Source: Desulfatiglandales bacterium
GTDB taxonomy: Bacteria > Desulfobacterota > DSM-4660 > Desulfatiglandales > Desulfatiglandaceae
DNA: 64,000 nt
NCBI GenBank assembly: GCA_963666345.1
Contig: OY762721.1
Coordinates: forward strand, 3,552,001 to 3,616,000
Direction: 5' to 3'
Position numbers and translations under genes: made by a program
The notes under the pieces: model-generated
Database searches by the model: none
Seen by the model: only the letters and a program-made list of their open reading frames with translations
What the model was told of the DNA's origin: nothing
Shown: piece by piece, positions 7,380-39,898 of the stretch
Numbering within the stretch: the first letter of the stretch is position 1
Layout: each line of letters starts with the position of its first letter

Positions 7380-7456
<77 letters not shown>

Positions 7457-7465
7457 GTAATATCA

Positions 7466-7499
7466 ATGACTTATCACTTTTGCGACAAGTCATTTTTTT
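7466..7499 (+). terminator. Hairpin plus T-run after the tRNA
   Basis: aatgactt...aagtcatt followed by a T-run. Confidence 0.5.
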
Positions 7500-7560
7500 A
7501 TTTTTGATGTGGTTTTGCCATAATTTTGCCAAAATTCAACCTAACTAATTTTACCCATCG

Positions 7561-10041: not shown

Positions 10042-11545
10042 GGTATCCCTCCCTTACCAAACGTTCATAGCGGCGGCAGTCTGCTATGGGCTCTTGCTTG
10101 AGAATCAGATGGGAGGGGATACCCAAATCAGGCGTGCAATCCTGATCCTGATCCCTGTTTAAAAGATTGAGAACCACCTCTTTACTTACGGCCCTTATCT
10201 TTAGGGCCTCCTTACAGGCTTTACTTACAGCCTCAAGTCCGTAGAAAGGAACAGCATTTAGAATGGCCACAAACTGACGGTCCCAGTCGGAAAAACGGTT
10301 TTGAAGCCCATTTAGGACGCCTTCGACAGGATCGGGAAGTTGCCAGTCTTTAAAGGGGGCTCCATTACGGAGAGCCCCGGGCTTACGTTCAAGGACCGGG
10401 ACATAATGCCAGGGATTAAAAATAGTCTTGTTCTTTCCAAAATGCCTATCATGCTCTCCTACGATACAACCGTTATTTACTATCACTATCCGATCGGCAT
10501 ATACTCTCATATAGACCGCTTTACCCACCTGGCTGCAATTAACGCTGTATCGGTTCCGGTCATAGGTTACAAGTGAGCTGGGGGTAACCCTGGCTGGACG
10601 TTGTGCATATCCATCAAAGAGAGGTGGTAGATTTATCAGATAGGGTCTCTCTTCACTGTAGACCTGCCAAACCGTCTTATCAGATATTGTTGGATGCTTA
10701 CGGGTCTTTGCCCAGGTGATGCATTGTTCTCTAAGCAGCTCGTTTAGGTGTGTGAAATCCCTGGCCTTGATTCGGGGAGTGAAAAATCTCCTTCTGACCA
10801 CACCTACCTGGTTTTCCACCTGACCCTTTTCCCAACCTGCAGCAGGGGTGCAGCTTACCGGTTCAAATAAATAATGGGAACACAGTTGGCTGAAGCGGCT
10901 GTTGAACTGTCTTTCCCTTCCTCCCAGGATCTTGTTAACCACTGTTTTGAGATTGTCATAGATGCCTTTACGGCAAACTCCCCCAAAAAACTCAAAGGCC
11001 CTGATATGGGCATCAAACACCATCTCCTGGGTTTCTCTGGGGTAGGCAATACAAAGGAAGTAGCGGCTGTGACATAACCTTATATGTGCAACCTTTGCCT
11101 TTACTCTGCTTCCGTCCAGATCTACCCACTCATGACTCCAGTCAAACTGAAAGGCTTCTGCAGGATCAAATACCAAAGGTATAAATACCTCCTTTGGCAA
11201 GCTCCTTTGATCCTGGCGCCATCTTTGAACATATCTCCGTACGCTGTCATAGCCACCTTCGTAGCCGTTGAGTTGCAGCTCTTCAAAAAGTATCTGGGCT
11301 GTCCTGCGCAGTTTTTTGGGCAGTTTCTCGTCTTCTTCCAGAAAGCCTTTCAGCATGTCTATAAACGGCCCCAGCTTGGGTCTTGGCTGGTTGCTTCGTT
11401 CGTACTGAAAAGATGTTTCTCCGCTCCTTATCGCCTTTTTTACTGTATTTTTGCTAAGGCGCAGATCCTTCGCTGTCTGACGTATGGATTTGCCATCTCT
11501 GAGAACAGCTAATCGTATCTTACGGATTGTTTCCACTGTGAGCAT
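10028..11545 (-). CDS. istA: IS21 transposase IstA
   Basis: N-terminal HTH, QFDW, YDNLKT, EKGQVEN DDE motifs. Confidence 0.95.
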
Positions 11546-11659
11546 CCCTTTCCGCCTCCTTCTACCATAGTCACAGCAGAATAGAAGGCTTTCAGGGGTG
11601 GGTCAATTTTGGACGCCGATTCGCCCTATAGGTGGGTCATTTTTGCATGCCGATTCACA

Positions 11660-13020
11660 CCCCAGGAACGGGAAAGACATCCTTTGCTGAGGGTCTGGCA
11701 AAAGAATTGAAAATACCAGCATATACCATCACAAAAGATGCTGACAACAAGACTAAGCGTGCGAGACTTGCAATTATGGCCTGCTTAAACATTACAAACA
11801 GTGGAGATGGGTCCCTGGTAGTCGTAGATGAGGCTGACAACCTCCTTAACACAAGGTTCTCATGGTTTTCAAGGGGTGAGACTCAAGATAAGGGCTGGCT
11901 AAATAAACTGATGGAAGAGCCAGGGGTAAGGATGATCTGGATAACCAATGAGATAGATGACATTGCCCCATCGGTTTTAAGGAGATTTTCCTATAGCCTA
12001 CACTTTAAACCCTTTAACAAGCGTCAGAGAGTGCTTCTATGGGAGAACATCTTAAGATATAACAGGGTCAAGAGGTTTTTCACCAGTGATGAGGTAAATA
12101 GCCTTGCCGTCAGGTATAGGGTAAATGCCGGGGTCATAGATCTAGCGGTCAAGAAGGCTAAAGAGACGGGTATTACATCAAAGCCTGATTATCAAAATGC
12201 CTTAAGACTTGCCTTGGATGCCTACCTGGCTTTGGAAAATGGCGGGGAGAAGGAAATAGACAGGGAAAGAATCGAGAAAAACTACTCCTTGGAAGGTCTT
12301 AATATAAGGGGTGATCTTAAAGGAGCCTTAGGTCAGCTGGAAGCCTTTGATCAGTTTTTAAGGAAGGCTGATGATGACAGGGTATTAACCATTAATCTCT
12401 TGCTTTATGGACCACCTGGTACTGGAAAGAGCGAGTTTGCCAGATACCTTGGAAGGCACCTTGATAGGGAAATTATTGTCAAACGGATAAGTGACCTACA
12501 GAGCAAATGGGTAGGTGATTCAGAGAAGAATATCAGGGATGCCTTTTATGAAGCAGAAAGAGAAGAGGCAATCCTTATCATGGATGAGGCAGATAGCTTG
12601 GTTTTTAGCAGGGATTATGCCCTTCACTCATGGGAGATATCATTTACCAATGAATTTTTGGCCAGGTTGGAAAGGTTCAAAGGGATTCTTATTTGCACTA
12701 CCAATAGGCTGAAAGACCTTGATCAGGCGAGTATCAGGCGGTTTCAGCATAAGCTTGGGTTTGATTATCTGGATGCTGAAGGTAATCTGATTTTCTATCA
12801 AAAGCTTTTAGAAGGGCTGGTTGATGAACCATTGGATGATGAGAATATCGCTAAGCTAAAAGATATCCGTAACCTTGCTCCAGGAGATTTTAAGACGGTA
12901 AGGGATAGGTTTATCTTTATTTCCGATGATGGCCTGAACCATCAGACCCTTGTTGAGGCTTTAAGAAATGAGTCTGAAATCAAGAAGGTCTTCCTTAAAA
13001 CCGGCTCGATTGGCTTTTAA
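11660..13020 (+). pseudogene. Tandem-AAA ATPase, 5'-truncated by IS21 inside the first Walker A
   Basis: Begins ..PGTGKT at the IS end; VVDEAD; second domain GPPGTGKS, IMDEAD, LDQASIRRF; ends SIGF. Confidence 0.8.
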
Positions 13021-21611: not shown

Positions 21612-22217
21612 ATGTTCAACTATAAGAATCTTATGAATAAATTTGATCCACCTATTTGGATTGGAAACCAATATGAAAATGGGGGAATTTTTGAAAAGCG
21701 CATCATTATAATTGGTGAATCAACATATTGGTCAGGTCAACAACCGAATATTTCAATGGCTACTGATCATTTCGCTGATAAGCCACACTCAGATAAATAC
21801 AGGACGAAATTAGTCAGAATGTTTTTAAATAAAGATAATGAAACGAGAGAGGAAATTGCTGAATTTTGGCATTCAGTATCTTTTTTCAATTATTTTAAAA
21901 CTGTTTTAAGCGGTCCTTATAGATCACCTACTCAAGAAATGTTGAAGCAGCATCAGCCGCTACCTGATATTCTAGATGCTCTTAAACCAAATTTGATTTT
22001 AATAGTAATGCTCCGAATGTGGGATTATTTTGTCTCTAACCCGCCCTGTAAAATAAAAATGGGTCCAATAATAAAAGGAGCAAGGCGTAGTCAAACTTAT
22101 CATTTTGAAAGTAAAAGTGGACTCCATTCAGCATTGGGGTATGCTGTGAAGCATCCAACTTATGCTAGCTGGTCTTTAGAGCATGTCTACACTAAGGAAG
22201 CAATAAAACTTGCGTGA
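21612..22217 (+). CDS. Hypothetical protein, possible uracil-DNA-glycosylase-like fold
   Basis: WIG..Y...IIIIGESTY near N-terminus, LKPNLIL, KHPT near C-terminus; RBS AAGGAG. Confidence 0.55.
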   Translation: MFNYKNLMNKFDPPIWIGNQYENGGIFEKRIIIIGESTYWSGQQPNISMATDHFADKPHSDKYRTKLVRMFLNKDNETREEIAEFWHSVSFFNYFKTVLSGPYRSPTQEMLKQHQPLPDILDALKPNLILIVMLRMWDYFVSNPPCKIKMGPIIKGARRSQTYHFESKSGLHSALGYAVKHPTYASWSLEHVYTKEAIKLA

Positions 22218-22259: not shown

Positions 22260-22706
22260 CTATAGTTTTATTTTGTTAGTGAAATTGAATGCAGCTTGTA
22301 TATCCTGTAATTTCTTATCCCTGATCTTTTGATCCCATATTTCAAACTTTTTAAGCGCACCCATAAGTATAACCTTGTCTTTGTTAATCCCAGTAATCTT
22401 CCTGATTTGATCTGAAATAAATATTTCCCCTGCATCCGAAATGGATTTTTTATCCAAACAAAAGAAAGGCCTTTCGCCAGGAGATAAAGAAACCTTTTGT
22501 GAGAATAATTCTTCGGTTAATTCCCAAAAATAATCTTCAGGCAAAATTGTTAGTGAACCTTTTTCTCCATTCCATAATATACGCACCCCTTCATTTTTTA
22601 ATAAACCGATCCATATATCAGGGAGTAAAATTCTCGAATTCTCTATACTTCTATGGTATAACCCTCTAAAGAAGAGACCGTCTTTATATTTCTTTGAGGT
22701 GGCCAT
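22260..22706 (-). CDS. Divergent MraZ-like (SpoVT/AbrB fold) DNA-binding protein
   Basis: FRGLYHRSIENSRILLP and DAGEIFISDQIRKITGI..VILMGALKKFEIWD resemble the two MraZ repeats. Confidence 0.7.
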   Translation of the reverse strand: MATSKKYKDGLFFRGLYHRSIENSRILLPDIWIGLLKNEGVRILWNGEKGSLTILPEDYFWELTEELFSQKVSLSPGERPFFCLDKKSISDAGEIFISDQIRKITGINKDKVILMGALKKFEIWDQKIRDKKLQDIQAAFNFTNKIKL

Positions 22707-22743
22707 ACCGCCTTCCTTTCTATTTCCCTCAGTCTTTAAGCTA

Positions 22744-23376
22744 TTAATCAAATTTGGGTTTACTGTCTATGGAATGCTTCTCAGATTCAAAAACTACCAG
22801 CTCTTTTTCTGAGGTGATTATAAGGGTAAAGCCATGAGGGCTTTTATAGAACCAAGCCCAGCTATCCCAATCCCAATCAAGCGTTGGAATTTTATAAGCA
22901 TCTATAAAGGCTTCAGCAAAATCTTTAGGGGTTAGCTCATATACGTTAAACATCTTATCCACGCACATACTGCTAAACTGGAATTTATAGACCTTGCCGC
23001 TTTCTCTGTGAGCATATATCCCGAATGCGTCCCTATATTCCTCTGGCCTGAAACAATAATGCTGGCCAGTAGGAAGCTGCATCAACTCCCAATGGTATCC
23101 TGTGATTCTTTTAATTGTAGCCTTGGCGTCATTTATCGGCATCCCAAGGTAAAGACCTTTGAATTTGAGCGTTCGGGATTCAGTTTTTAGATTTTCAAAG
23201 GATTCCTTTTCAATTCCTACTATGTATCGAAACTGATCTGAGCCTTCGACAATATACGATCCGATTTTTCGCTGTTCATTTTCCGCACTGACAAAACCCG
23301 GGAGACAGGCGGTGAGCCCGAATATTGATGATATACCGAGGAATTGACGGCGTGTTATATTTAATTTTTTTGGCAT
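22744..23376 (-). CDS. Twin-arginine (Tat) exported hypothetical protein
   Basis: TRRQFLG + hydrophobic stretch + VSA cleavage site; start 23376 or TTG 23388. Confidence 0.7.
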   Translation of the reverse strand: MPKKLNITRRQFLGISSIFGLTACLPGFVSAENEQRKIGSYIVEGSDQFRYIVGIEKESFENLKTESRTLKFKGLYLGMPINDAKATIKRITGYHWELMQLPTGQHYCFRPEEYRDAFGIYAHRESGKVYKFQFSSMCVDKMFNVYELTPKDFAEAFIDAYKIPTLDWDWDSWAWFYKSPHGFTLIITSEKELVVFESEKHSIDSKPKFD

Positions 23377-23445
23377 TTTCAGTTTCAAGATTGTGAGAAG
23401 GGATATTATCCTTCAGATTATGATAAGCTGTTAACCTCTGACGGA

Positions 23446-25731
23446 TTATCTATAAGAGTTTCCATTTGCTCCAAACAATACAGGGATATGTTTTTTGTTT
23501 TTATATCTTCCTATAACTTTAAATAAATGATCATTGATAATGGACTTCCCATCACCGTTCAAAGAGGACTCTCTTTTGAACTGATTTGCTATAAGATCTA
23601 TTTCATTTAGATGCAGTGGATGATGCTCCACAACCTGAATAAATTTATCTTCAATATCTTTTCGGGCGTTAAAGTGTTTTGCCCATTGTCTTATTTGAAA
23701 TTCTTCGGGAGGGAGATGAATATTTAGAAAATAGTTGAACTCAATGGGTATTTCTTCCTCTCTGACAGGATTTGTAATTAAAAAAAGGATACCTTTAAAC
23801 CTCTCTAAATAATTATAAAAATCAAAAGATTCTTTTTCCTTATCATTATCTTCTTTATACTTGAGGTATCGTTCAAAAATTGACTTATCATCTACAAGGA
23901 GGGTCACTGAGCTGTGACCTATAAAGGTCCTGAATATGTATTCCAATGGATCAATCTCATCCTGTGTTAAGTTATCTTTTACTATCCTCGAAGAGCTTTT
24001 ACCAATAAGCATATCGGGCAGGTTGAACATTCTTACCTTTAAATTACATTCTTTAGCTACTGCCGCGGCACAATCAGTTCCTGTCTGAATATCGGAACAA
24101 CCCATTATGAGTTTTATATCCGTGTTGTTACTAGAATCTTTCATTATAGCTTTTATCAAATTGCTTATAACTTCTTTATCTCTGTGCCTTAAAAAGAGAT
24201 CTTTCATATTAATCTGAGGCGTGAAAATTTTCTCCGATAAATTGAACTCAAGCATCCTGCACGTTTGATGTTCTGCGGCTCTTTCGAGTTCTTCAGACGT
24301 CAATATCAGATTTGAATTTTTGTTTTTTACCAGCGTATTAGTTGTTGCCATGAAAAGAGTATTTTTGATCAGACCTCCTGTGAAAACATAATTTCTTGCA
24401 AATTTGCTAAGGTCTACATCTTTGCCAAATAAAGCATTGGGAGGAAGCAATGCTTCCCATATTTTCAGCCTTTCACGTTCGTCCGGCAGTTGGAAAGGGA
24501 TTTTTAAATTTATACGCCGGTCAAGAGCAGGATCAAGTTTAATAACTTTATTGGTTGCAAATATGGTAATGCACCCTGCCTTCTCAATTTCGATAAGCAG
24601 GTTTCGACTCTCTTCTGTGTTTTTACTGAAAACATCATCGCACTCATCAAAAAAGACAATTCCATTACATAACTTTGCCTCTTTGAAAATAGTATTTATC
24701 AACTCATTATTTGAAATTCTGAATTGAAAATCCTTGGAAAAATTTACAGATAGGAGCTCCATGTCCAGCTCGTTTGATAAGGCGTGTGCCAGCATGGTTT
24801 TACCCGTACCTGATGGACCATAAAACAATAATGTCAATCCAGTACCATATCCGTAGAATTTTTCGACAATAGTTCTTTCCTCTATTACCTGACTATGTAG
24901 ATAGTTCCTGGTCAGTTCTACAATTTCTCTTTTTACTCCCCCGGAAATAATTACCTGATCCAGTCCGATGCTTCCCTTTTTCCTGGAAATACATTGAAGG
25001 TCTGTATCATAAATATTGTTATCCTCAAGAATGAACCTGATAGCGCGCTCATGTAAATGAACCGGCATATCTAGAATATTTGTTGTATTAACGTAAAAAG
25101 AACCGGGAATAACAATCTCGTTTTTTATCAGAGGAGCTTTAATGTTAAAATATTTTCTGCTGGATATTTGATCCCGATATTCTGAATGAACAATTGATAA
25201 GATTGATCCAATAGTCATAGCGCTATCGGTTCGATCTTCAGGATCAAGTTCACAGCACCTGAAAAGGTTACGAAAGCTCTTTGATGTCTCATATGAAATC
25301 AATAGTATTAAAATAATACGTTCCGTATCATCAAGCTCATTAAGCTTACAGAAATGTTCAAAATTAAGATGTATTCCTGCCTCAAGAGAATTCCGTACCC
25401 GTTGATTTATATCCATCTCAATTTTTCTGAGCAACATCTCCAACTTTTCAGGAGTTATCTCATCAGGCGACAAACCTGAAGAATTAAAATTCAATTCCTG
25501 AGTAAAACCGCTAATTTTTTTATGTTTAAGAATTAATACGTCGTTATTTTCCTGATTGGAGGAAGCATCACGAAGGAATGCTTTAACAACTCTAACCCTT
25601 GCGGAATACTCCAGCGCTTCAAGGTGTTCAATACTATCTTTAAAGATACTTTCCTTCTTGGGATTATTGATTGCCATATAAACTGAGAAATCATTTCCTG
25701 ATAATGTCCTTTCAATTGTATTAAGGCCCAT
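23446..25731 (-). CDS. AAA+ ATPase: helical N domain, active AAA domain, degenerate second AAA domain
   Basis: GPSGTGKT, VFFDECD, FATN, LDPALDRR; second module with decayed Walker A (GCSDIQTGT), LLVDD, LITN. Confidence 0.88.
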   Translation of the reverse strand: MGLNTIERTLSGNDFSVYMAINNPKKESIFKDSIEHLEALEYSARVRVVKAFLRDASSNQENNDVLILKHKKISGFTQELNFNSSGLSPDEITPEKLEMLLRKIEMDINQRVRNSLEAGIHLNFEHFCKLNELDDTERIILILLISYETSKSFRNLFRCCELDPEDRTDSAMTIGSILSIVHSEYRDQISSRKYFNIKAPLIKNEIVIPGSFYVNTTNILDMPVHLHERAIRFILEDNNIYDTDLQCISRKKGSIGLDQVIISGGVKREIVELTRNYLHSQVIEERTIVEKFYGYGTGLTLLFYGPSGTGKTMLAHALSNELDMELLSVNFSKDFQFRISNNELINTIFKEAKLCNGIVFFDECDDVFSKNTEESRNLLIEIEKAGCITIFATNKVIKLDPALDRRINLKIPFQLPDERERLKIWEALLPPNALFGKDVDLSKFARNYVFTGGLIKNTLFMATTNTLVKNKNSNLILTSEELERAAEHQTCRMLEFNLSEKIFTPQINMKDLFLRHRDKEVISNLIKAIMKDSSNNTDIKLIMGCSDIQTGTDCAAAVAKECNLKVRMFNLPDMLIGKSSSRIVKDNLTQDEIDPLEYIFRTFIGHSSVTLLVDDKSIFERYLKYKEDNDKEKESFDFYNYLERFKGILFLITNPVREEEIPIEFNYFLNIHLPPEEFQIRQWAKHFNARKDIEDKFIQVVEHHPLHLNEIDLIANQFKRESSLNGDGKSIINDHLFKVIGRYKNKKHIPVLFGANGNSYR

Positions 25732-25743
25732 TTTATTAACTCC

Positions 25744-26313
25744 TTATTTTTTCAAATCAGGTTTTAAGGGTTCAACGATATCAACAATACCAAATTCTAA
25801 CGCTTCTTCCGGAGTAAGCCATGTGTCAACATCCCGCAGAAGATACTGCTCAAGCTTCTCCTGGGACTCTAGATTGCTGTACTTCAAGTAATGGCTAACA
25901 ATTCTTGAATGCTCGAGATCCTGTTCTTTGCGTTCAGCAATTAATTGACTGTGATTTCCCCAGGTGATTGCTGAATATCTGTGTGAAAGCATAGAAGTCC
26001 TGGGAGTAATTACCCTTCGACCCTTTGCTCCTGTCATAAATATAAGGAGGCTCATCGACGCTATCAGTCCAACTCCGGTTGTGTAGATTGGCAGGCGTGA
26101 CCACTCCATTATGTCTATTATCGCAAAGCCATCAGGGCACAAGCCCCCGGGTGAGTTGATAATCATCTGTATGTGATCAGTGCTGCCAGATAGATTATAT
26201 TCGATTATGTCTTTACACACATTTTCCGAAACCCCATTACTGATAGTGCCGGATAAAAAAATAATTCCGTATTCTTTTAAACCCTTGCCTTCAGGTTGGC
26301 CATTTTTATCCAT
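25744..26313 (-). CDS. ClpP-family (S14) serine protease
   Basis: IINSPGG, GLIASMS (Ser), MLSH (His), DTWLTPEEALEFGIVD (Asp). Confidence 0.92.
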   Translation of the reverse strand: MDKNGQPEGKGLKEYGIIFLSGTISNGVSENVCKDIIEYNLSGSTDHIQMIINSPGGLCPDGFAIIDIMEWSRLPIYTTGVGLIASMSLLIFMTGAKGRRVITPRTSMLSHRYSAITWGNHSQLIAERKEQDLEHSRIVSHYLKYSNLESQEKLEQYLLRDVDTWLTPEEALEFGIVDIVEPLKPDLKK

Positions 26314-26387
26314 ATCTTTTTCTCCTTAAGTTCCTTTAATTGTAACTAGCTATAATTATTTGACCCTTTTTTTTATTATTGTTAACA

Positions 26388-26409
26388 TCACATTACTCCA
26401 CGAATGTGA
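26388..26409. promoter_or_regulatory. Palindromic operator candidate between divergent ClpP and WYL genes
   Basis: TCACATT-N8-AATGTGA. Confidence 0.6.
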
Positions 26410-26448
26410 CATTTTTGGCCATATGAACTAAAAATTTTCTGGAAAAAA

Positions 26449-27447
26449 ATGAGAGGGAAAAATTTAATAAAACTCCTGAGGGCTCTCGAGCTTTTTTCAA
26501 AACCTGAGGGAACTACTATTGAAGAGATATCCGAGCACCTAGGAATAGATCGGAGGTCTGTCTACAGGGTGATAAATTTGGTTGAGGAGCTCGGATTCCC
26601 TATATATGACGAGGAAATACCATTAGAGAAGAGTAAAAGATGGAAGCTTGAGGAAAGCTATCTAAAAAAATTGCCCAATATGAAACTTCCGGATGTCAAA
26701 CTATCGATATCCGAGATAATGTCGCTATATTTATTGAAGAGTGAATCCGTTCTTTATAAAGGTACTGAAATATATAAACATATCAACTCAGCCTTTGAGA
26801 AAATCAGTCTTTTTGCCCCCAAGGACCTGTTTACACAACTAAAAAAAATCAGCGCCTTATTTGTCCCGTCATCAAAGTTTAGAAAAGACTATGCAGGAAA
26901 AGAAAAAATCATAGAGCAGCTTATGGACGCGATGCTCCAGAAAAAGACCTGCTATGTGAAATACCATTCCTTTTATGAGGACAGGATAAAGAATTTTAAA
27001 ATTGATCCATTGCATTTCTTCGAGAATGACGGTGGATTATATATTTTTGTTAATGCTACAAGTTTTGGCGATATTCTCACGCTCGCTGTTGAGAGGATCC
27101 AAGAGATAAGGGACGCTGGATCATGCTTTGAATACCCTAAAAACTTTAATCCGGAAGAGTTGCTGGAATCTGCCTTTGATTTAGTTTACGGAGATCCGGT
27201 CGAGGTCAAAATCTGGTTCTCCGCCCACCAGGCACGTTATATAAAAGAACGTATGTGGTCAAAGACCCAACAAATAGAAAACCAGGAAGACGGTTCAATT
27301 ATCTTATCGATGAAAACTTCAGGTCAATGGGATATTATCAGGTGGGTCCTTTCCTATGGTAGTGATGCTAAAGTGATGGAGCCTGAAGGGTTGAAAAAAA
27401 AGATTATGGTGGAATTAACAGCAGTTGTTAATAAGTATAATGAATAA
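26449..27447 (+). CDS. HTH-WYL-WCX transcriptional regulator (YafY/BrxR/PafBC-like)
   Basis: N-terminal wHTH (RRSVYR), Y.S..IDPL..LY..AVERI WYL domain, RWVLSYG..V.EP WCX domain. Confidence 0.92.
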   Translation: MRGKNLIKLLRALELFSKPEGTTIEEISEHLGIDRRSVYRVINLVEELGFPIYDEEIPLEKSKRWKLEESYLKKLPNMKLPDVKLSISEIMSLYLLKSESVLYKGTEIYKHINSAFEKISLFAPKDLFTQLKKISALFVPSSKFRKDYAGKEKIIEQLMDAMLQKKTCYVKYHSFYEDRIKNFKIDPLHFFENDGGLYIFVNATSFGDILTLAVERIQEIRDAGSCFEYPKNFNPEELLESAFDLVYGDPVEVKIWFSAHQARYIKERMWSKTQQIENQEDGSIILSMKTSGQWDIIRWVLSYGSDAKVMEPEGLKKKIMVELTAVVNKYNE

Positions 27448-28881: not shown

Positions 28882-30399
28882 ATGCTCACAGTGGAAACAA
28901 TCCGTAAGATACGATTAGCTGTTCTCAGAGATGGCAAATCCATACGTCAGACAGCGAAGGATCTGCGCCTTAGCAAAAATACAGTAAAAAAGGCGATAAG
29001 GAGCGGAGAAACATCTTTTCAGTACGAACGAAGCAACCAGCCAAGACCCAAGCTGGGGCCGTTTATAGACATGCTGAAAGGCTTTCTGGAAGAAGACGAG
29101 AAACTGCCCAAAAAACTGCGCAGGACAGCCCAGATACTTTTTGAAGAGCTGCAACTCAACGGCTACGAAGGTGGCTATGACAGCGTACGGAGATATGTTC
29201 AAAGATGGCGCCAGGATCAAAGGAGCTTGCCAAAGGAGGTATTTATACCTTTGGTATTTGATCCTGCAGAAGCCTTTCAGTTTGACTGGAGTCATGAGTG
29301 GGTAGATCTGGACGGAAGCAGAGTAAAGGCAAAGGTTGCACATATAAGGTTATGTCACAGCCGCTACTTCCTTTGTATTGCCTACCCCAGAGAAACCCAG
29401 GAGATGGTGTTTGATGCCCATATCAGGGCCTTTGAGTTTTTTGGGGGAGTTTGCCGTAAAGGCATCTATGACAATCTCAAAACAGTGGTTAACAAGATCC
29501 TGGGAGGAAGGGAAAGACAGTTCAACAGCCGCTTCAGCCAACTGTGTTCCCATTATTTATTTGAACCGGTAAGCTGCACCCCTGCTGCAGGTTGGGAAAA
29601 GGGTCAGGTGGAAAACCAGGTAGGTGTGGTCAGAAGGAGATTTTTCACTCCCCGAATCAAGGCCAGGGATTTCACACACCTAAACGAGCTGCTTAGAGAA
29701 CAATGCATCACCTGGGCAAAGACCCGTAAGCATCCAACAATATCTGATAAGACGGTTTGGCAGGTCTACAGTGAAGAGAGACCCTATCTGATAAATCTAC
29801 CACCTCTCTTTGATGGATATGCACAACGTCCAGCCAGGGTTACCCCCAGCTCACTTGTAACCTATGACCGGAACCGATACAGCGTTAATTGCAGCCAGGT
29901 GGGTAAAGCGGTCTATATGAGAGTATATGCCGATCGGATAGTGATAGTAAATAACGGTTGTATCGTAGGAGAGCATGATAGGCATTTTGGAAAGAACAAG
30001 ACTATTTTTAATCCCTGGCATTATGTCCCGGTCCTTGAACGTAAGCCCGGGGCTCTCCGTAATGGAGCCCCCTTTAAAGACTGGCAACTTCCCGATCCTG
30101 TCGAAGGCGTCCTAAATGGGCTTCAAAACCGTTTTTCCGACTGGGACCGTCAGTTTGTGGCCATTCTAAATGCTGTTCCTTTCTACGGACTTGAGGCTGT
30201 AAGTAAAGCCTGTAAGGAGGCCCTAAAGATAAGGGCCGTAAGTAAAGAGGTGGTTCTCAATCTTTTAAACAGGGATCAGGATCAGGATTGCACGCCTGAT
30301 TTGGGTATCCCCTCCCATCTGATTCTCAAGCAAGAGCCCATAGCAGACTGCCGCCGCTATGAACGTTTGGTAAGGGAGGGATACCATGCTGCGCAATGA
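28882..30399 (+). CDS. istA: IS21 transposase IstA
   Basis: Protein identical to copy 1. Confidence 0.95.
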
Positions 30400-31117
30400 T
30401 ATCATGGACCAGATGGAAAAACTAAAGTTGCGGGGTATGCAGTCCATTTATGATGAAGTTGTCTCCAATGGACGCAAGAGCCATTCAACGCCTGAAAAGG
30501 TAATCCTGGAACTGCTCAAGGCTGAAGCTGCCGAAAGATATATAAGGAGTATCCGATATCGTATGGGACAGGCCAGGTTTCCTGTCCTTAAAGATATCGA
30601 TGGCTTTGATTTTAACGGGGCCTGTGTTGATGAAGCCCAGATTAGGTCTATTTATCAGGGTGATTTTATAGCCGAACATATCAACCTGATTTTTGTAGGT
30701 GGCACCGGTACGGGCAAAACCCATTTAGCCATAACTATAGCGGCCCAGGCCATAAGGAATGGCAGGAAGTGCAAGTTTTATAACCTGGTGGATCTGGCAA
30801 ATGAGCTTGAGCAGGAAAAAATGATTGGATTGGCCGGCAAAATCACAGCAAGACTACTTCGATTTGATCTTGTGGTCCTCGATGAACTGGGTTATCTGCC
30901 TTTTTCCAAAAACGGCAGTCAACTGCTCTTTCATCTTATATCAAAACTCTACGAACAGACATCCATAGTGATTACCACCAACTTGACCTTCGGTGAATGG
31001 CCCCAAGTCTTTGGAGATAAAAAGATGACTACGGCCATGCTTGATCGGTTGACTCATCATTGTGAAATTATAGAAACAGGTAACGAAAGCTGGAGAATGA
31101 AACACGCAGCTTCATAG
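30386..31117 (+). CDS. istB: IS21 helper ATPase IstB
   Basis: Protein identical to copy 1. Confidence 0.95.
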
Positions 31118-31832: not shown

Positions 31833-34670
31833 ATGGTTTTCAAAATCACGAGATTTACATTCTTGACAGCCTTTCTGATCTTTATAATTCTAGCCAATTG
31901 GGCTTTCTGTGAACAGTGGCCTCCTAACTCATGGTATCGATGTCCATATTGCTACCATGTTCAGGACAATTACAATTCAGGGGTATGTGAAAGCTGTGGC
32001 AACCAGTATATTTCTGAAGTTGGTGATAAACATGATGGATGGATAAAAACTTTCTGGGATCAGGGTTATCATTACAATACTAAATGCCCTGAGATTAGAG
32101 GAGAGCAGGCTCCGGTCGGTTGTACGGCAACAGCAATGGCTCAAATAATTAATTTTTGGGAGTATCCCACAAGCGTAAGTTTTTCAGATTTGCCAAAGGA
32201 GCAAGGTGGGGATGCTTATGATTATTGGGATAAATGGGGAATTCTGCCAATAAATAAAATAAATATATTTGAAGATTCATATGCCTCAGTAAATGATCTT
32301 AATAACGCTTTAGAAACCATAGATTACTATACTGATGAAGAATCTCAATCTAGCTCTAGTGCTAGAGATGAACAGGCCTATTTTTGTTTTGGTGTTGGTG
32401 CCAAACTTGGAATGAAATATCATAAAGAAGAATCAGGTATACGTTTAAGTGCGGATGCTTACCTAGAGGGTTTTAACTATGGTTCAGCTATATGGGAGTT
32501 TAAGGATTATTGCATATGGAACAAATATGAAGACACTATTATTGAAAATTTAAAGAAGGGATGGCCAGTTCAAATTGGGATCATCACGGATGGCTCAGAT
32601 GGTCATTCAATAGTTGTAGATGGTTACAAAGATTCAGGTGTTGAACGTTTCCACACCAATTGGGGATGGGGCCTTGGTTACACTGGTTGGATAAATTTAC
32701 CCGATACTGGGACTGATTATAAATATGTACAACAAATTGTTTACAATATAGCTCCCTACAAAGGTTGGAACCAATGGGGTGCAGATGAAAGAAATTCCTT
32801 CAGCACACTTTATAACGCACCAGATGAAAATGTTATAAAAGAGAAATGGAAAGTTACATGCCCTTCAAGCCATAGTTTCAGTGGCTTAGTAGTTGGATCA
32901 GCTAATAATATTTATGCTGCTTGCTCACCAGATGGAACTTCCCAGCACCCCAAAGTCTATATGTACAACCAGTTCGGTTCAAAAACTGGAGATCCAATTG
33001 ATATTCCAGAAAATGTTAAAATTGAATTTATATGCCAAGAAACAGATCCTGAAAGCTCAGATAGGTATGTATTCATTTCCACAGAAAACGGATTCGTATA
33101 CAGGATAGATACCCGCAGTCGAACATGTAATAAAATATGGACAGAACCAAATAGTGATGACATCGATTGTTTAAAAATAGATTCAGACGGCTATTTATAT
33201 GCTTGCACGCTTCATAACCTTTACCAATTAGATTGCAATGGAAATGAAAAATGGCATTATTCTGCACCTGGTGACACGATGTTTTTAGGAGGTGGGAAAA
33301 ATCCCGCAATCGATGAGAAAAGGAATAAAGTCTATGTTGTATATTATGATTCAAATTCTAAAACGCCTTATCTTGTCCAGCTATCCAGGGCATCTGGGCC
33401 TAGTTTTATGAACACAAGATCATTTGGATCTGTCACCATCCCAACCATAAGAACTCCAATAGTAGGTCCTGATGGCACTATTTATATAGGAATATACACA
33501 ACTCTTTATGCACTTAATTATAGTGATATAAATGGTCCAACAAAGTGGACTAAAAATTTAAACTGCAGAAATGGCTGTTTAGATCCTAATGGTGAAAAGA
33601 TATATGTTCCATTATGGGAACAGGAGGATGGTCAATGGTATAATAAAATACGAGCAATGAATACCCTAAATGGTGATGAAATATGGGAAATCAAATTTCA
33701 GCAAGACCCTTCTAAAGATGATATTTGGCAGCCATATACAGCTGGTAATGGTATGGTATGCTTTACTGTTGAAACAGGTGGAGACCCTGAAACCTATACC
33801 GTTTACGGCTATCAGGATAATGGAAATAGCTACGATAAAAAATGGCAATTTGATGCTGGAACATCAGGCGGGGATTTTGCCTTCGGTCCGGGATCTACTT
33901 TATATTTTTGGGGAAAGACCGGTGTTGCTGAAACAATTTATGCTATTTCACAGGGTGAAACTGGAAAAGCCAATGAAGCTGGTATGGGCTTCACAGATAA
34001 TTCATCTCCCGAAAGTCCTCATAGTCCGACTCCAAATGATGGGGCTACTGATTTAGATATAGATGTTTTCCTAGATTGGGAGTCTGGAGATCCAGATTTC
34101 CATGCTTTAAAGTACTCAGTTTTTGTTGGAAAGCAAGGTAGTATTATGGTGCCAGTTGTTACTGACTTAACAAATAGCAATTATACATTGGAAAATTTAG
34201 AAGGGGGGAAGCTTTACAATTGGCAGATTATTGCAAGTGATGGCCAAGCAATTACAAAAGGTCCAACTTGGGCGTTTACAACAGAAATAGAAGATTTATG
34301 TCCCGATGATCCAAACAAAACAGAACCTGGCATATGTGGGTGTGGTGTGCCAGATACAGACACAGACGGAGATGGGGCTGCAGACTGTATTGATTTAGAT
34401 GACGATGATGATGGCCTACAAGATATTATTGAGGATGTAAATCAAAACGGAGCAGTTGATTCGGGAGAAACTGATCCTCTTAATCCTGATAGCGATGATG
34501 ATGGGATGTTAGACGGATGGGAAGTGCAATATGGTCTTGATCCTCTGGTAGATGATGCATCGGGCGATCTAGATGGTGATGGGGTTTTAAATTATCAAGA
34601 ATATCTTAACGGCACAGATCCATCAAGACCACCATTTTTGCCCTTCTTACCATTACTCTTAGAGGATTAG
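31833..34670 (+). CDS. Secreted C10 (streptopain-like) cysteine protease with PQQ-like beta-propeller, FN3-like domain and Asp-rich Ca-binding repeats
   Basis: Signal peptide; WDQG.YN..CP, VGCTATAMAQI (Cys), GHSIVVDGY..FHTNWGWG (His); xKW repeats; DTDGDG/DSDDDG repeats. Confidence 0.88.
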   Translation: MVFKITRFTFLTAFLIFIILANWAFCEQWPPNSWYRCPYCYHVQDNYNSGVCESCGNQYISEVGDKHDGWIKTFWDQGYHYNTKCPEIRGEQAPVGCTATAMAQIINFWEYPTSVSFSDLPKEQGGDAYDYWDKWGILPINKINIFEDSYASVNDLNNALETIDYYTDEESQSSSSARDEQAYFCFGVGAKLGMKYHKEESGIRLSADAYLEGFNYGSAIWEFKDYCIWNKYEDTIIENLKKGWPVQIGIITDGSDGHSIVVDGYKDSGVERFHTNWGWGLGYTGWINLPDTGTDYKYVQQIVYNIAPYKGWNQWGADERNSFSTLYNAPDENVIKEKWKVTCPSSHSFSGLVVGSANNIYAACSPDGTSQHPKVYMYNQFGSKTGDPIDIPENVKIEFICQETDPESSDRYVFISTENGFVYRIDTRSRTCNKIWTEPNSDDIDCLKIDSDGYLYACTLHNLYQLDCNGNEKWHYSAPGDTMFLGGGKNPAIDEKRNKVYVVYYDSNSKTPYLVQLSRASGPSFMNTRSFGSVTIPTIRTPIVGPDGTIYIGIYTTLYALNYSDINGPTKWTKNLNCRNGCLDPNGEKIYVPLWEQEDGQWYNKIRAMNTLNGDEIWEIKFQQDPSKDDIWQPYTAGNGMVCFTVETGGDPETYTVYGYQDNGNSYDKKWQFDAGTSGGDFAFGPGSTLYFWGKTGVAETIYAISQGETGKANEAGMGFTDNSSPESPHSPTPNDGATDLDIDVFLDWESGDPDFHALKYSVFVGKQGSIMVPVVTDLTNSNYTLENLEGGKLYNWQIIASDGQAITKGPTWAFTTEIEDLCPDDPNKTEPGICGCGVPDTDTDGDGAADCIDLDDDDDGLQDIIEDVNQNGAVDSGETDPLNPDSDDDGMLDGWEVQYGLDPLVDDASGDLDGDGVLNYQEYLNGTDPSRPPFLPFLPLLLED

Positions 34671-35568: not shown

Positions 35569-36410
35569 TTAATTGTAGGGCCTCAATCTTTCGCTCACTA
35601 TTGCATTCAGCTTTCTGACATCCTCGGTAAGATTCAAGACATGCATTTTTCGGTGACAGTTTGGACATAAGGCAACAGTATTCTCAATTACATCCTCACC
35701 GCCTTCTGACAACCAGGTTAGGTGGTGTTCTTCAAGATACGGCACTCCTTTTCTATCCTTGAATGGAGCATCATTCCCACAAAGCTGACATTTTCCGTTA
35801 GCTATTCTTTTTGCAAGTTCAGCTACATAAACGTTCCTCTCGTAGGTTTTTGAGATGACCTGTCTACGTCCAACTCCTTTTCTTGAATATTTGGCTCTCC
35901 TCTCAAGTTCAGAATAGCTTAACCTAGAAGCCTCCCTCTGTTTTTTCTCCTGTTTGCTCTGTATGAGTTTATCCGGTGTCGGCTTATAAGCTACACCTGC
36001 TTGAAGCTTTAATGGGAAAACCCAAACATATCTCAAATTGTGGTCTATGTCTGGTTGTGTTTCTTTATAAGGTTCACTGGCCAGTTCAACCTGGCCTTGG
36101 TATATATAATTTCCTCTGTCAAACACTTCGAAAAGAAATAAACTAACATCAGATTCGGGAGATTCAGCCACCGTTTTATTCTGATTAGCATCAATTCGTT
36201 GATCACCTCTCAATCCCATGCCAGTGTAGTGAAAGACATCATCTATCCATCGGTCTTCATAAATGGATTTTGTAGGATCAGAGACAAGAACAAGACTATT
36301 CGTTGTAAGGGATCGTCTCATCCCCCCTTTTGTGGGCTGCATTTAAATATTTCTCGCAGTTGGTCGTTTTGGAGGATATCTCCTACCTCTAGATTTGGCT
36401 CAAATGTCAA
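35569..36410 (-). CDS. SRA-like + HNH endonuclease (McrA-like, modification-dependent), frameshifted near 36328
   Basis: GGMRRS..LVLVSD..YED.W..HYTGMG..GDQ; CQLC, EEHH.W..GG.D..N..LCPNCH; TTG start at 36410 with AGGAGG RBS lies in a different frame from the body. Confidence 0.8.
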
Positions 36411-36816
36411 TTTCGTTCCTCCTCAATTTGTCAACGAAGGGAAGATCAGCTGGTGCAAAATCATATTGATCTAGCTGGCTAGGCTCAACCCATCTGTAAT
36501 CATCATGAGCACTGGCTATGATATCACCACTCTGCCAATAGGTGTTAAAAGCTAGAAGGTTTATTGATATGTGGTCATAGTGATAAACACTAGAGCCTAT
36601 AAACATTCCAATGGAAGTAACTATCCCAAATTCTTCCATTAGCTCTCTTTTCAAGCATTGCTCAGCAGTCTCACCGTTCTCAACTTTTCCGCCAGGAAAC
36701 TCCCATTTATTTGGTAGGCTCCCAGTAACCTTCCTTTTGGCTATGAGAATTTTACCATCTTTCACCATAATGGCTGCAGTAACATCTACGATATGGGGAT
36801 CACTTTTTTCAGTCAT
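36400..36816 (-). CDS. Nudix hydrolase, MutT/NudG-like
   Basis: WEFPGGKVENGETAEQCLKRELMEEFG Nudix box; FAPADLP. Confidence 0.93.
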   Translation of the reverse strand: MTEKSDPHIVDVTAAIMVKDGKILIAKRKVTGSLPNKWEFPGGKVENGETAEQCLKRELMEEFGIVTSIGMFIGSSVYHYDHISINLLAFNTYWQSGDIIASAHDDYRWVEPSQLDQYDFAPADLPFVDKLRRNEIDI

Positions 36817-36845
36817 TAATTTTCCTTCTAGTATAGCTTGAACAG

Positions 36846-37397
36846 CTATTGGTTAGATGCATTTTCACCATCTGCTAACAGCCCATATATAATTGTTGGC
36901 ACCGATATGGGTAAAACGGTGAAATATCTTAAGGCCAAGGCAAAGTTGGCCATGTTCCTAACACTTGATCTTCTATTAGGGAAAAATTCGTATTCATTAT
37001 GTGGCACAATTAACACTGCAAGGCTAAGCAATCCATTCTGGAGCCCATATTGAAACTTGTAGAAATCACGGTACAACGTAGCACTATTGCCAAACTGTAT
37101 CTCACCAAAAACAAGACCCTTAGAAAAATCGCCTATCAAACGAGGGGATTTACTCAATCGGGGCTGCAATCGCCAACCTATCTCAGATAAGGCATCAGAA
37201 AACGATCTGTTATATGCAGCTTGATGATGAAGCAAGTTCTTGGTTGTGTTCAATGAGAAATCTGGAGACCATGCGTGAGCAGTAAGGACATCAGACAATT
37301 CCTGAAGCTCTGCATTAACAGAGGATAGCAGCACCTCGCCACAGTGCAAATATTTAGTAAGGTATCTCATATTTGTTTCTAACGCCTGGTTGTCCAC
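36846..37397 (-). CDS. BglII/BstYI-like type II restriction endonuclease fold protein
   Basis: GDFSKGLVFGEIQFGN (D..E-x-Q motif), D.YKFQ. Confidence 0.7.
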   Translation of the reverse strand: MDNQALETNMRYLTKYLHCGEVLLSSVNAELQELSDVLTAHAWSPDFSLNTTKNLLHHQAAYNRSFSDALSEIGWRLQPRLSKSPRLIGDFSKGLVFGEIQFGNSATLYRDFYKFQYGLQNGLLSLAVLIVPHNEYEFFPNRRSSVRNMANFALALRYFTVLPISVPTIIYGLLADGENASNQ

Positions 37398-37490
37398 CTA
37401 GTTTCATTGATCATGGCTATCACATTACATGTATATTTACTAAAAGCCTCGGAGAGGAAAGCTGTAGGATTATCTTTTAACTGCTAAAAA

Positions 37491-38090
37491 TCATTTTGAC
37501 GTAGGATCAAATCTAGTCAAGAATTTCTTAATTTCTTCATCTGTAGAATTTTCCGTAATGCCATTCTCTTTTATAAGCTTTTCGATTTCATGCAATTCAA
37601 GGAATTGTCGTTTTGATAAGACATCTTTAGGATCTTGATCACCCCATTTTGGGCCAAATGTTTTCACAGCCCAATACATTACTTTAGCCTTAATTTTGTT
37701 CACGCCTCCACACAGGCAAGCATCGTAAAACATTCTATGTGCTGTTAGAGAAGATCGACAAATTTTTTCACGAAGATCACAAGCTACATCATGAACTACA
37801 GACGCCCTGCGATAATTACCTACAAATGGTGGGCCAATCCATTTATTCCATAGTAGCCATGGGATGCTTGCTCCATTAATTTCAGAACCTCTAGGAGCAG
37901 GCCATTGTTTTCCACTAGGATCAACATAATAAAAATCGTCAAGAAGTATGACATTTCTATCTGGCTCGGGCTCCACCATCCACTCAACTCGGACATCATT
38001 TAAAAAATGTCCATTAGAATCAGCGTACAAGTTAGATGCCAAAAGAATTAGGAGTCCTATGAAGATTTTAAAGAAAACTTTATATTTCAT
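37491..38090 (-). CDS. DUF1353-like protein with signal peptide
   Basis: GASIPW.LW..GPPF.G.YRRASVVHD..C, YWAVK.FG. Confidence 0.75.
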   Translation of the reverse strand: MKYKVFFKIFIGLLILLASNLYADSNGHFLNDVRVEWMVEPEPDRNVILLDDFYYVDPSGKQWPAPRGSEINGASIPWLLWNKWIGPPFVGNYRRASVVHDVACDLREKICRSSLTAHRMFYDACLCGGVNKIKAKVMYWAVKTFGPKWGDQDPKDVLSKRQFLELHEIEKLIKENGITENSTDEEIKKFLTRFDPTSK

Positions 38091-38178
38091 AAGTCCTCAC
38101 AATATTAATATATCTGAAACAAGAGGCTTTGTCTGAATGTGCAGTTCCAATTACTGATGAAAACATACAGCTCAATCT

Positions 38179-38454
38179 CTATTTAATCTCAAAGCCCTCG
38201 TAATAAACCACCATCTCATCAAGTATCCGTTTCTCCCATGGATCTTTCTGGCTCATGCAGCTGCCACATGCTCCGCTATCGGCATCTCTATAAGCACCAA
38301 TGGTTGGATCTAGACCGCCATTCCTGAAGACCCTCTGGTAGTATATACAACCACAAGAAAGCAGATAGAACCTTAAGCCTGTCACTTCACCTGGAAAGGA
38401 CTGAAAGATACTTCTTGCAAGCCAGGTGATTGTTTCTGAGGTGCTGGATTCCAT
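38179..38454 (-). CDS. Small Cys-containing hypothetical protein
   Basis: CGC and CxxC motifs; no recognised family. Confidence 0.55.
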   Translation of the reverse strand: MESSTSETITWLARSIFQSFPGEVTGLRFYLLSCGCIYYQRVFRNGGLDPTIGAYRDADSGACGSCMSQKDPWEKRILDEMVVYYEGFEIK

Positions 38455-38517
38455 ATATTTGCCTTGTAGTTCTTATTTATAAACTGGAAGGTTCCAAGCT
38501 ACATTATGTATTTTCGG

Positions 38518-39363
38518 TTAAATCTTATCAGATTTTTCCCTGTTGCAGTGCTCACATAATATTTGAATGTTTCTTTCAGTATTGCTTCCCCCTTTTGAAA
38601 CTGGGATGATATGATCAAACTCCAAGTTTTCTTTGCTACCACATTTTACACACTTCCCTCCGTCTCTTCTCCAAACAAACATTCTGACAGCCTCAGGTAT
38701 TGGTTCTCTTGCTAACTCTGGTTCAGATGCCAATCTCTCAATTATTTGAAGCTCCTTTTGGAACCTGTCGAGCTTTTTCATCTCTTTAACATAATATTTT
38801 TTAACTAATAGTTGCCGGTCTTCTTGACTATGTATGTCAGGCTTATTGAAATAATATAGATTCTCTTTATAAACGTAGAAAGTATAGCTTTCAAATTCCT
38901 TCATTATTTCATTTTTTTTGGTATGAATTTTGTCTTTAGCATTTCTCACTCGTTCGCTAAATTTAGCCATTGCTTCTTCATATTTCTGTGCTTCCCTTTC
39001 ATTTCTGTCATTATCCCTGTCTTCTGCAGCCCATTCTCTATCCCAATGCTTGCTTTTAGCTATATCGTACCTACGGTCAAAAGGATCAAGAGCTGTTCTA
39101 AATTCAGGAACATAAGTGTAATATCTTTTAGGTTTTTTAGGAGGGACATTAGGAACTTTTATATTACTTAAGTCAATATTTAACAGAGCTGCAGACAATA
39201 GTTGAGGATCATCTTTTTGAGTTCGTTTAAATTCAGCCATATGTTTTTGCGAAGAAAACTCAATCAAGCATGGTCGACCCAGAATTTTTATCGTAATTTG
39301 ATCAAACTTGACCTTCTCATTCTCGGTCTTCAAGAATCCTGTACTCAAAACCTTTAGCGCCAT
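38518..39363 (-). CDS. C-terminal HNH endonuclease, paralogue 1
   Basis: RRDGGKCVKCG..LEFDHIIP.SKGGSN..NIQILC..CN. Confidence 0.9.
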   Translation of the reverse strand: MALKVLSTGFLKTENEKVKFDQITIKILGRPCLIEFSSQKHMAEFKRTQKDDPQLLSAALLNIDLSNIKVPNVPPKKPKRYYTYVPEFRTALDPFDRRYDIAKSKHWDREWAAEDRDNDRNEREAQKYEEAMAKFSERVRNAKDKIHTKKNEIMKEFESYTFYVYKENLYYFNKPDIHSQEDRQLLVKKYYVKEMKKLDRFQKELQIIERLASEPELAREPIPEAVRMFVWRRDGGKCVKCGSKENLEFDHIIPVSKGGSNTERNIQILCEHCNREKSDKI

Positions 39364-39480
39364 TTGAATCCCACTTCAAAACCTGAGTTTTTGACCGATA
39401 TTCTCTGGAAAATGCGATTGTAGTAACCCTTATACAAAATGTGCTTTTAGCGAAACAGAATCATATTTCAATAATCCTTA

Positions 39481-39879: not shown

Positions 39880-39898
39880 AACTTTCTCCAAAAAACAT

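Follow-up and report, generated by a model that had tools for sequence, protein, structure and literature searches.

ClpP works with Clp/Hsp100 partners that dock on it through internal IGF-type loops, the [LIV]-G-[FL] motifs (IGF or IGL) by which ClpX, ClpA and ClpC are held on the peptidase, and its activation by acyldepsipeptides is of a drug type. The classic AAA rings PAN, Mpa and Cdc48 dock on a self-compartmentalised protease through C-terminal HbYX tails, and such tails likewise dock activators on proteasomes. A further pair of ATPase and protease is IetAS, reportedly described by Gao and colleagues in 2020 as consisting of the AAA ATPase IetA and the S8 protease IetS. Here we analyse a 64,000-nt stretch of DNA from a Desulfatiglandales bacterium (contig OY762721.1, positions 3,552,001–3,616,000), hereafter the window, whose own positions serve as coordinates throughout. 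In it, a WYL-domain regulator (P0003) is encoded divergently from an operon whose first gene encodes an accessory ClpP paralogue (P0002, hereafter the accessory ClpP) and whose second encodes an AAA ATPase (P0001). We lean towards explaining the three genes as a self-contained mobile module, in which a WYL-controlled private ClpP would be served by a dedicated, tail-docking ATPase.

Like ClpXP, ClpAP and ClpCP, the module encodes a ClpP-fold serine peptidase with a catalytic triad beside a ring ATPase, and its candidate docking element is a short hydrophobic peptide that contains Gly and Phe. It differs from them in that the partner is a classic AAA protein (PF00004) and not of the Clp/Hsp100 type, in that the peptide, LFG, lies on a C-terminal tail instead of an internal IGF/IGL loop, in that the ring next to the tail appears ATPase-dead and no GYVG-type pore loop is conserved, and in that the accessory ClpP lacks axial N-terminal loops and stays below the NCBIfam ClpP cut-offs. 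Some superfamily relatives of the ATPase resemble PAN, Mpa and Cdc48 in ending in hydrophobic-Tyr/Phe-X, whereas the protease of the module is of ClpP type, its motif is LFG and it includes no proteasome gene. IetAS resembles it as an ATPase-plus-protease pair on mobile islands, and it is the AAA domain of the module ATPase that gives the best PADLOC and NCBIfam match; the IetA models, however, span ~370 positions with no second ring and no LFG tail, and the protease of IetAS is subtilisin-like. Membership of IetAS was rejected, since the ATPase reaches 59 bits against the NF042959 cut-off of 510 and its neighbour is a ClpP, not an S8 protease. PADLOC gave no match for the accessory ClpP and matched the ATPase to its IetA models over residues 254–486 only (7.6e-18), in keeping with the forecast of an earlier, sequence-only reading of the window that no named system would be found. 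In a search of the full-text literature, no paper was found on a WYL–ClpP–AAA module, on PF22977 or on an AAA protein that partners ClpP through a C-terminal IGF/LFG motif, and the main text of the BrxR paper (PMC9122601) mentions neither Clp nor AAA. As judged by these comparisons, the module is an undescribed variant of a Clp-type protease with a WYL regulator, with no match in PADLOC or NCBIfam.

The pairing of the accessory ClpP with the ATPase extends well beyond the window. Of 35 loci of ATPase relatives in species-representative genomes, 25 have an accessory ClpP gene immediately upstream of the ATPase gene; of the other ten, two begin inside the ATPase without upstream DNA and eight belong to a long subfamily with IGF-type ends. 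A further 80 metagenome loci were found through an alignment of the accessory ClpP, 65 of them with at least 600 nt of downstream sequence, and the ATPase follows directly in 64 of these 65. In the 65th (L151), an ATPase with 44% identity and an LFG tail stands after one inserted gene of 361 aa. In 17 of 19 loci, the window included, between −32 and +25 nt separate the two genes, and the AAGGAG ribosome site overlapping the ClpP stop codon predicts a translationally coupled operon. Pairwise identities of the two proteins are correlated (Spearman 0.81 over 171 pairs, in which related members are not independent). Because the arrangement recurs in 25 genome loci and 65 metagenome loci, it is not due to chance, and because the accessory ClpP and the ATPase always occur together, the pair represents an obligate core. 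A WYL homologue is present in 19 of the 25 ClpP-linked genome loci (in one, L016, co-directional and at 25% identity). In metagenomes it lies divergently within 1.6 kb in 37 of the 57 loci with at least 1300 nt upstream, and anywhere in the locus in 45. The sequence-only reading, which had named conservation of the trio's neighbourhood as a check, is thus upheld for the pair, with the WYL gene frequent beside it.

The accessory ClpP scores 107.4 bits against PF00574 (cut-off 20.2). Its Ser86, His111 and Asp163 match the catalytic residues of solved ClpPs in position, and all 23 of the family members compared retain them, as expected from the compact ClpP with intact catalytic motifs noted earlier. 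The host has a canonical ClpP elsewhere in its genome (4.16 Mb in one contig; C1:78767-79306), which reaches 297 bits with a ClpP profile where the accessory copy reaches 106.7. The two share 29% identity, whereas the accessory ClpP is 52–73% identical to module ClpPs of other phyla. It remains below all NCBIfam ClpP cut-offs (TIGR00493, 71 against 308.6; NF009205, 95.4 against 228). A short, variable, Lys/Glu-rich stretch stands at the place of the ClpP axial loops, which form the N-terminal gate; the alignment to solved ClpPs opens at residue 16 of the accessory protein, opposite about residue 27 of the chain. At the position where host ClpP reads NVYINSPGG the accessory copy reads QMIINSPGG, a region which we take to line the docking pocket (Tyr60/Tyr62 in Escherichia coli). 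By its motifs, then, the protein is a distinct, catalytically intact and apparently gate-less ClpP paralogue. Two phages carry stand-alone ClpP-like genes closer to it than host ClpP is, each without a partner ATPase: Sinorhizobium phage Phosso (4851-5528, 44% identity) and the cyanophage Synechococcus phage BUCT-ZZ01 (4926-5492, 39% identity). In the latter, the gene adjoins one for a 511-aa protein without a Pfam match.

The partner ATPase combines an N-terminal PF22977 domain with a classic AAA domain (PF00004, residues 301–414, 81.7 bits). The ClpA/B/C/X-type model PF07724 stays at 16.7 bits, below its cut-off of 27, which agrees with the earlier view that the protein is not ClpX-, ClpA- or ClpC-like. 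A search of 5.8 billion protein clusters, in which 8000 candidates were scored, yielded at least 417 relatives. PF22977 and PF00004 occur together in nearly all of the 120 listed, most of which are 740–780 aa long with ~95% query coverage. The first AAA module (D1) contains Walker A GPSGTGKT (G305–T312), Walker B D362/E363, sensor-1 N394 and R405/R406 in LDPALDRR, the classic-clade second region of homology already pointed out by the sequence-only reading. Walker A, Walker B, sensor 1 and the two arginines are invariant or nearly so in a 24-sequence alignment and in 109 full-length members. Across these 109 members the pore-loop segment of D1 (residues 331–341) is variable, with no conserved aromatic pore loop, and the 24-sequence alignment contains no conserved internal [LIV]-G-[FL] loop for ClpP docking. 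Cdc48/p97 proteins are the best solved relatives, through D1 only (profile match 5.7e-42); D1 alone has solved relatives, none being found for the N-terminal domain.

The C-terminal 260 residues can be read as a decayed AAA copy (D2), consistent with the decayed second ring proposed from the sequence. A relative of 982 aa in which both AAA domains are intact matches by BLASTP at an E-value of 2e-45, with residues 174–695 of the ATPase collinear with 392–918 of the relative. Opposite the relative's second Walker A motif GPSGTGKT, D2 has GCSDIQTG-T, in which the Walker A lysine is gone; a longer, non-aromatic insert faces the pore loop SMFVGG, and the arginine fingers have no counterpart. An hhalign comparison of D2 with D1 agrees weakly with this assignment (E 0.0077, 187 collinear columns). 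D1 of the 982-aa relative likewise lacks an aromatic pore loop, so that the only ring with a canonical loop in the relatives is the one that is dead in the module ATPase. The ATPase also evolves much faster than its partner (median pairwise identity 34% versus 64% for the accessory ClpP), and its N-terminal part is the least conserved portion; together, these features fit a role in recognising substrates or signals. Elsewhere in the window, next to an IS21 copy, lies a 5'-truncated double-AAA ATPase of 462 aa (11632-13020, plus strand) with the C-terminal end ...TGSIGF, a PADLOC IetA match at 9.1e-32 and, in the second domain, the canonical pore loop KWVG. An intact paralogue of 754 aa with the same tail is encoded at C1:2940675-2942939.

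The tail motif of the module ATPase, LFG, is present in 115 of 121 homologues, and five of the six exceptions end before the tail. All 20 complete ClpP-linked ATPases carry it (two further open reading frames are masked or truncated), as do those of 41 of 45 metagenome loci, where it is never lacking if the tail is reached. Among 142 LFG tails, Pro stands two residues before the motif in 112 and V, L or I directly before it in 119; a Lys/Arg-rich linker leads to LFG, which lies 0–13 residues from the C-terminal end in most members. Relatives without an adjacent accessory ClpP are ~1000 aa long, with an N-terminal extension, the winged-helix domain and two live AAA domains, and end in IGF, VGFF and similar sequences. 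In 127 further representatives, drawn from a profile search of 1.84 billion proteins, 42 tails were LFG, 40 had [ILVM]GF in the last eight residues and 45 were fragments or had other endings, several of them hydrophobic-Tyr/Phe-X.

A tree was built from the winged-helix and D1 core alone, with tails excluded and rows shorter than 680 aa left out, which retained 109 rows. In it the LFG proteins group together, as 44 rows of which 43 have LFG and one is cut at ...ILF, with support of 100 in both FastTree and IQ-TREE. Rows outside this group include 41 with [ILVM]GF and 13 with hydrophobic-Tyr/Phe-X, and the tree requires 12–13 changes of tail type, against ~51.5 with shuffled labels. This clustering suggests that tails may mediate docking to different proteases. 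The PF22977-AAA superfamily as a whole numbers 4291 representatives at E≤1e-30, with tails clustering as LFG, [ILVM]GF at the very end and hydrophobic-Tyr/Phe-X. The [ILVM]GF relatives examined in eight loci have no adjacent ClpP.

The regulator has the HTH–WYL–WCX architecture shared with DriD, PafBC and SiwR (Pfam WCX, 2e-19; WYL, 7e-09; HTH_11, 1e-07), in agreement with the divergent WYL gene called from the sequence. Its nearest solved chains are 9pfq and 8tp8 (1e-05) and 7p5x (1.2e-04), of which we take 8tp8 to be DriD and 7p5x to be PafBC, both damage-response activators. Despite the shared architecture this similarity is weak (E 1e-05 to 1e-04) and falls mostly on the WCX part; that to 8tp8 spans residues 214–323 only. 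No solved chain recognisable as BrxR or CapW was found at E≤0.01.

The divergent intergenic region contains an operator-like palindrome with a consensus close to ATGTGTCCAAAAATGACACTCG. A leave-one-out operator matrix outscored all 200 shuffles in 13 of 16 loci (L004, L017 and L034 failed), and 46 of 62 loci have the pattern TGNC-N7-GNCA with an AT-rich centre in the 130 nt before the WYL start, against 72 of 6200 shuffles. In 28 of these 46 loci, the two half-sites have complementary bases at their variable centre position. In the window, the palindrome is upstream of both start codons, at a distance of 27–42 nt for the WYL gene and ~90 nt for the ClpP gene. It has no other exact copy in the 4.16-Mb genome (one-mismatch sites, three versus one in the control), which favours a local regulator. 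The divergent region shows no excess of promoter-like hexamers (22 versus 19.7 expected). The conserved, predicted operator ties the WYL protein to the ClpP–ATPase operon. The DriD box (ATACGAC-N7-GTCGTAT, with an AT-rich centre) is found in the promoter of the regulator gene itself in 68 of 69 homologues (PMC10853764), and SiwR is a divergent, local WYL activator that is itself activated by single-stranded DNA and binds a palindrome (PMC10693628). The module shares with these regulators a palindrome in the promoter of the regulator gene, with an AT-rich centre of 7 nt, and a divergent adjacent operon; its half-sites differ (GTGAC/GTGTC versus CGAC), and it has a single site in the genome.

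The module family is rare and patchily distributed. Of 401 genomes sampled from the phylum, 6 have it, the present one included; none of six other genomes of the same family and none of seven others of the same order do. The 25 linked loci span at least five phyla: Thermodesulfobacteriota (12), unclassified 'Deltaproteobacteria' (7), Synergistota (2), Acidobacteriota, Bacteroidota and Dependentiae (one each), with one locus unplaced. In the window, a tRNA-Arg(ACG) gene (7380-7456) is followed by a tyrosine integrase (region 7380-8868), and a low-GC island (36–44% against 48% for the genome) that starts at ~8 kb continues beyond the window for at least 20 kb. A search of the window for repeats of the tRNA end found none of 14 nt or more. 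Tallying with the mobile cassette suggested from the sequence, this setting and the multi-phylum distribution indicate that the trio is a conserved unit with horizontal mobility. Plasmids yielded no accessory ClpP at E≤1e-30, and viral contigs no family member (6 of 129 candidates, all of them AAA-domain hits only). The window also contains three IS21 elements (9310-11545, minus; 28882-31117, plus; 40861-43096, minus), each with a 505-aa transposase and a 243-aa IstB helper, identical in open reading frame lengths and Pfam scores. The first two, in inverted orientation, flank the 11.5–28.9 kb segment that holds the module.

The surroundings of the pair vary among loci. Over 101 loci, a DUF2779-type nuclease and an HD-like protein of ~196 aa come next in frequency (12 loci each), everything else occurring in at most four; by these counts the nuclease is frequent cargo outside the core. 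Genes 3' of the ATPase in other loci often encode nucleic-acid enzymes, among them DUF2779, PDDEXK_4 (PDC-S26 in PADLOC), REase-ARP, GmrSD, HD and ERCC4 proteins and a DprA-like protein (ShosA, 1.2e-51). A search of the present genome for DUF2779 gave no match, but control genomes gave none either, so the negative carries no information. In L014 (4498-5256), L015 (4503-5249) and L025 (2454-3161), a protein of ~240 aa with a DnaA ATPase domain (PF00308, down to 5.9e-50) is encoded inside the operon, either before the accessory ClpP or between it and the ATPase.

Directly 3' of the ATPase in the window (22260-23388, minus strand) stand P0004, a 214-aa protein with a Tat-type signal and a lipobox but no family match, and P0005, a 163-aa, weakly MraZ-like protein (TIGR00242, 1.4e-05). 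Neither has a homologue in any of the 35 loci, so they are not part of the module. A 201-aa open reading frame at 21612-22217 resembles a gene beside the ATPase in L013 only (23% identity, E 7e-12). Farther off are a 945-aa protein with a streptopain-type Peptidase_C10 domain (2.5e-30) and a long uncharacterised C-terminal part (31833-34670, plus strand), and a nuclease-type cluster (35569-40672, minus strand) with three HNH proteins (one matching type IV restriction models, 8.3e-19), a NUDIX protein (PDC-S07, 1.8e-46), a BglII-like endonuclease and DUF1353. Outside the low-GC island, a 965-aa MrfA-type helicase (2602-5499, plus strand) has DEAD, Helicase_C and MZB zinc domains and a C-terminal RNase_H_2-like domain, and matches PADLOC BrxHI (7e-45) and SngC (2.3e-40). 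The features of the module are collected in Table 1.

Table 1. Features of the WYL–ClpP–ATPase locus, in window positions
Feature	Position	Strand	Basis or remark
ATPase P0001, 761 aa	23446..25731	-	Open reading frame
Accessory ClpP paralogue P0002, 189 aa	25744..26313	-	Open reading frame; PF00574, 1e-30
WYL regulator P0003, 332 aa	26449..27447	+	HTH_11, WYL and WCX domains
12-nt spacer, ClpP stop to ATPase ATG (the 12 bp given by the sequence-only reading)	25732..25743	-	AAGGAG ribosome site overlaps the ClpP stop
ATPase N-terminal winged-helix variant domain, residues 27-242	25006..25653	-	PF22977, 8.5e-27
ATPase D1, predicted active classic AAA module with lid, residues 285-495	24247..24879	-	PF00004, 8.4e-23
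ATPase D2, predicted decayed AAA module, residues 536-745	23497..24126	-	BLASTP, hhalign, alignment
ATPase C-terminal tail motif P750-V-L-F-G754	23470..23484	-	Candidate docking peptide for the accessory ClpP
Operator-like palindrome	26403..26424		Core TGGC-CAAAAAT-GTCA on the minus strand, 26407-26421
Second inverted repeat TCACATT-N8-AATGTGA	26388..26409		Overlaps one operator half-site; known from the window only
Catalytic codons of the accessory ClpP	Ser86 26056-26058; His111 25981-25983; Asp163 25825-25827	-	

The explanation towards which we lean starts from features displayed directly by the loci, namely the gene anatomy, the obligate pairing, the perfect co-occurrence of the tail motif with the accessory ClpP, the operator and the patchy distribution. 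The WYL regulator, acting on one palindromic operator in the divergent promoter region, would control the ClpP–ATPase operon. The ATPase ring would form a complex with the accessory ClpP by docking through its LFG tails, much as ClpX and ClpA dock through loops and other rings through HbYX tails, and ATP binding or hydrolysis in D1, governed by the N-terminal domain, may switch proteolysis on. By analogy with DriD, PafBC and SiwR, we infer that the signal for the WYL protein is probably a nucleic-acid cue such as single-stranded DNA. The biological role of the protease would then lie in DNA damage or in attack by phages or mobile elements, alongside a variable nuclease cargo.

Several observations weigh against this explanation. 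With no conserved aromatic pore loop in D1 and D2 apparently dead, a classical unfolding–translocation cycle is unlikely; since no canonical pore loop survives, gating or allosteric activation is at least as likely a role as processive unfolding. The sequence-only reading, which had proposed an ATP-dependent protease on a mobile cassette, thus gains from the conserved mobile unit and the operator, and is doubtful where it implies an unfoldase in the usual sense. Docking is argued from motif logic and co-occurrence, and the order of residues in LFG is not that of the known [LIV]-G-[FL] motifs. A search among longer proteins for a ClpP–ATPase fusion gave none at E≤1e-20, a point of weak evidential value. 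The WYL gene is absent from L019, L025 and L027 (the other three of the six genome misses have no upstream DNA) and from 12 of the 57 metagenome loci with enough upstream DNA, which makes the regulator a frequent companion and not an obligatory one. Defence-type neighbours were counted in 10 of 21 loci (PADLOC E≤1e-10, within ~6 kb), a figure without a matched background control. In the window itself no nuclease cargo follows the ATPase, and the nearest defence-like genes (type IV restriction-like HNH, PDC-S07 NUDIX and BglII-like, at 35.5–37.4 kb) are at least 8 kb away, past an IS21 element and the C10 peptidase gene. None of the listed sequencing runs is recorded as RNA.

The same loss of pore loop and proximal ring lends itself to another reading, possible though on balance unlikely, in which the module is an anti-phage abortive-infection effector. 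The ATPase would be the sensor, and its tails would open or activate the gate-less ClpP into uncontrolled proteolysis, in an acyldepsipeptide-like manner. The divergence of the ATPase relative to its partner, greatest in the N-terminal part, is consistent with such a sensor, as are the patchy distribution, the island location and the defence-type neighbours, and the nearest named match is a defence ATPase, IetA, in its AAA domain only. Against it stand the lack of family members on viral contigs and of the accessory ClpP on plasmids, the missing background for the neighbour count, and a regulator whose nearest solved chains are presumably damage activators, DriD and PafBC, with no recognisable BrxR or CapW.

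Another alternative, which we regard as unlikely, is a protease for DNA damage or genotoxic stress. Here a WYL protein sensing single-stranded DNA would induce the p97-like ATPase and the accessory ClpP, which would clear proteins from damaged DNA or turn over co-induced nucleases. The operator is laid out as in the DriD box, and the regulator resembles SiwR in being local and divergent; the cargo of DUF2779, ERCC4, PDDEXK, HD and DprA-like proteins, the AAA domain nearest to Cdc48/p97 and the winged-helix N-terminal domain point the same way. However, a module found in so few genomes of its phylum is unlike a core repair function, and one exact operator in the genome provides no regulon.

It is also conceivable, though improbable, that the genes are merely co-regulated, the accessory ClpP working with host ClpX, ClpA or ClpC and the ATPase acting elsewhere. 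The genome does have its own Clp machinery, with the canonical ClpP noted above, but the accessory ClpP lacks the N-terminal loops and differs from host ClpP in what we take to be the docking-pocket region, and adjacency in 65 of 65 loci (counting the one with an inserted gene), tight coupling and an LFG tail that co-occurs perfectly with the accessory ClpP speak against it. A relic of phage morphogenesis, with a ClpP-like prohead protease, is highly improbable and was rejected: despite a PHROGs match to the head maturation protease phrog_94 (2.4e-25), an NCBIfam Clp_rel_HeadMat score of 64.7 bits and the two phage genes 39–44% identical to the accessory ClpP, the HeadMat score is below its cut-off of 120, ClpP models score higher, no capsid, portal or terminase gene lies beside the accessory ClpP in the window or the loci examined, and the phage genes have no ATPase partner.

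The tail types allow a wider proposal, which we offer as speculative and rather unlikely. The PF22977-AAA superfamily would be a large, unrecognised class of bacterial protease-docking ATPases, whose interchangeable tails ([ILVM]GF, hydrophobic-Tyr/Phe-X and LFG) address different self-compartmentalised proteases. Its LFG branch, with a dead proximal ring and no pore loop, would have given up threading; gated by a signal, it would activate a private ClpP that has no gate, in the manner of acyldepsipeptides, as a WYL-triggered proteolytic switch for suicide or clearance in phage attack or DNA damage.

At the level of the family, an obligate, cross-phylum pairing joins an apparently gate-less ClpP paralogue to a classic-clade AAA protein with a tail motif and a proximal ring predicted to be dead. 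If confirmed, this would add to the ways in which a Clp protease is known to be built and controlled, and provide a natural counterpart to the drug-induced activation of ClpP. The pattern of tail motifs across the superfamily yields a rule, open to direct test, by which the protease partner of an orphan AAA ATPase could be predicted, and with its WYL operator the module lends itself as a simple model of proteolysis induced by nucleic-acid sensing.

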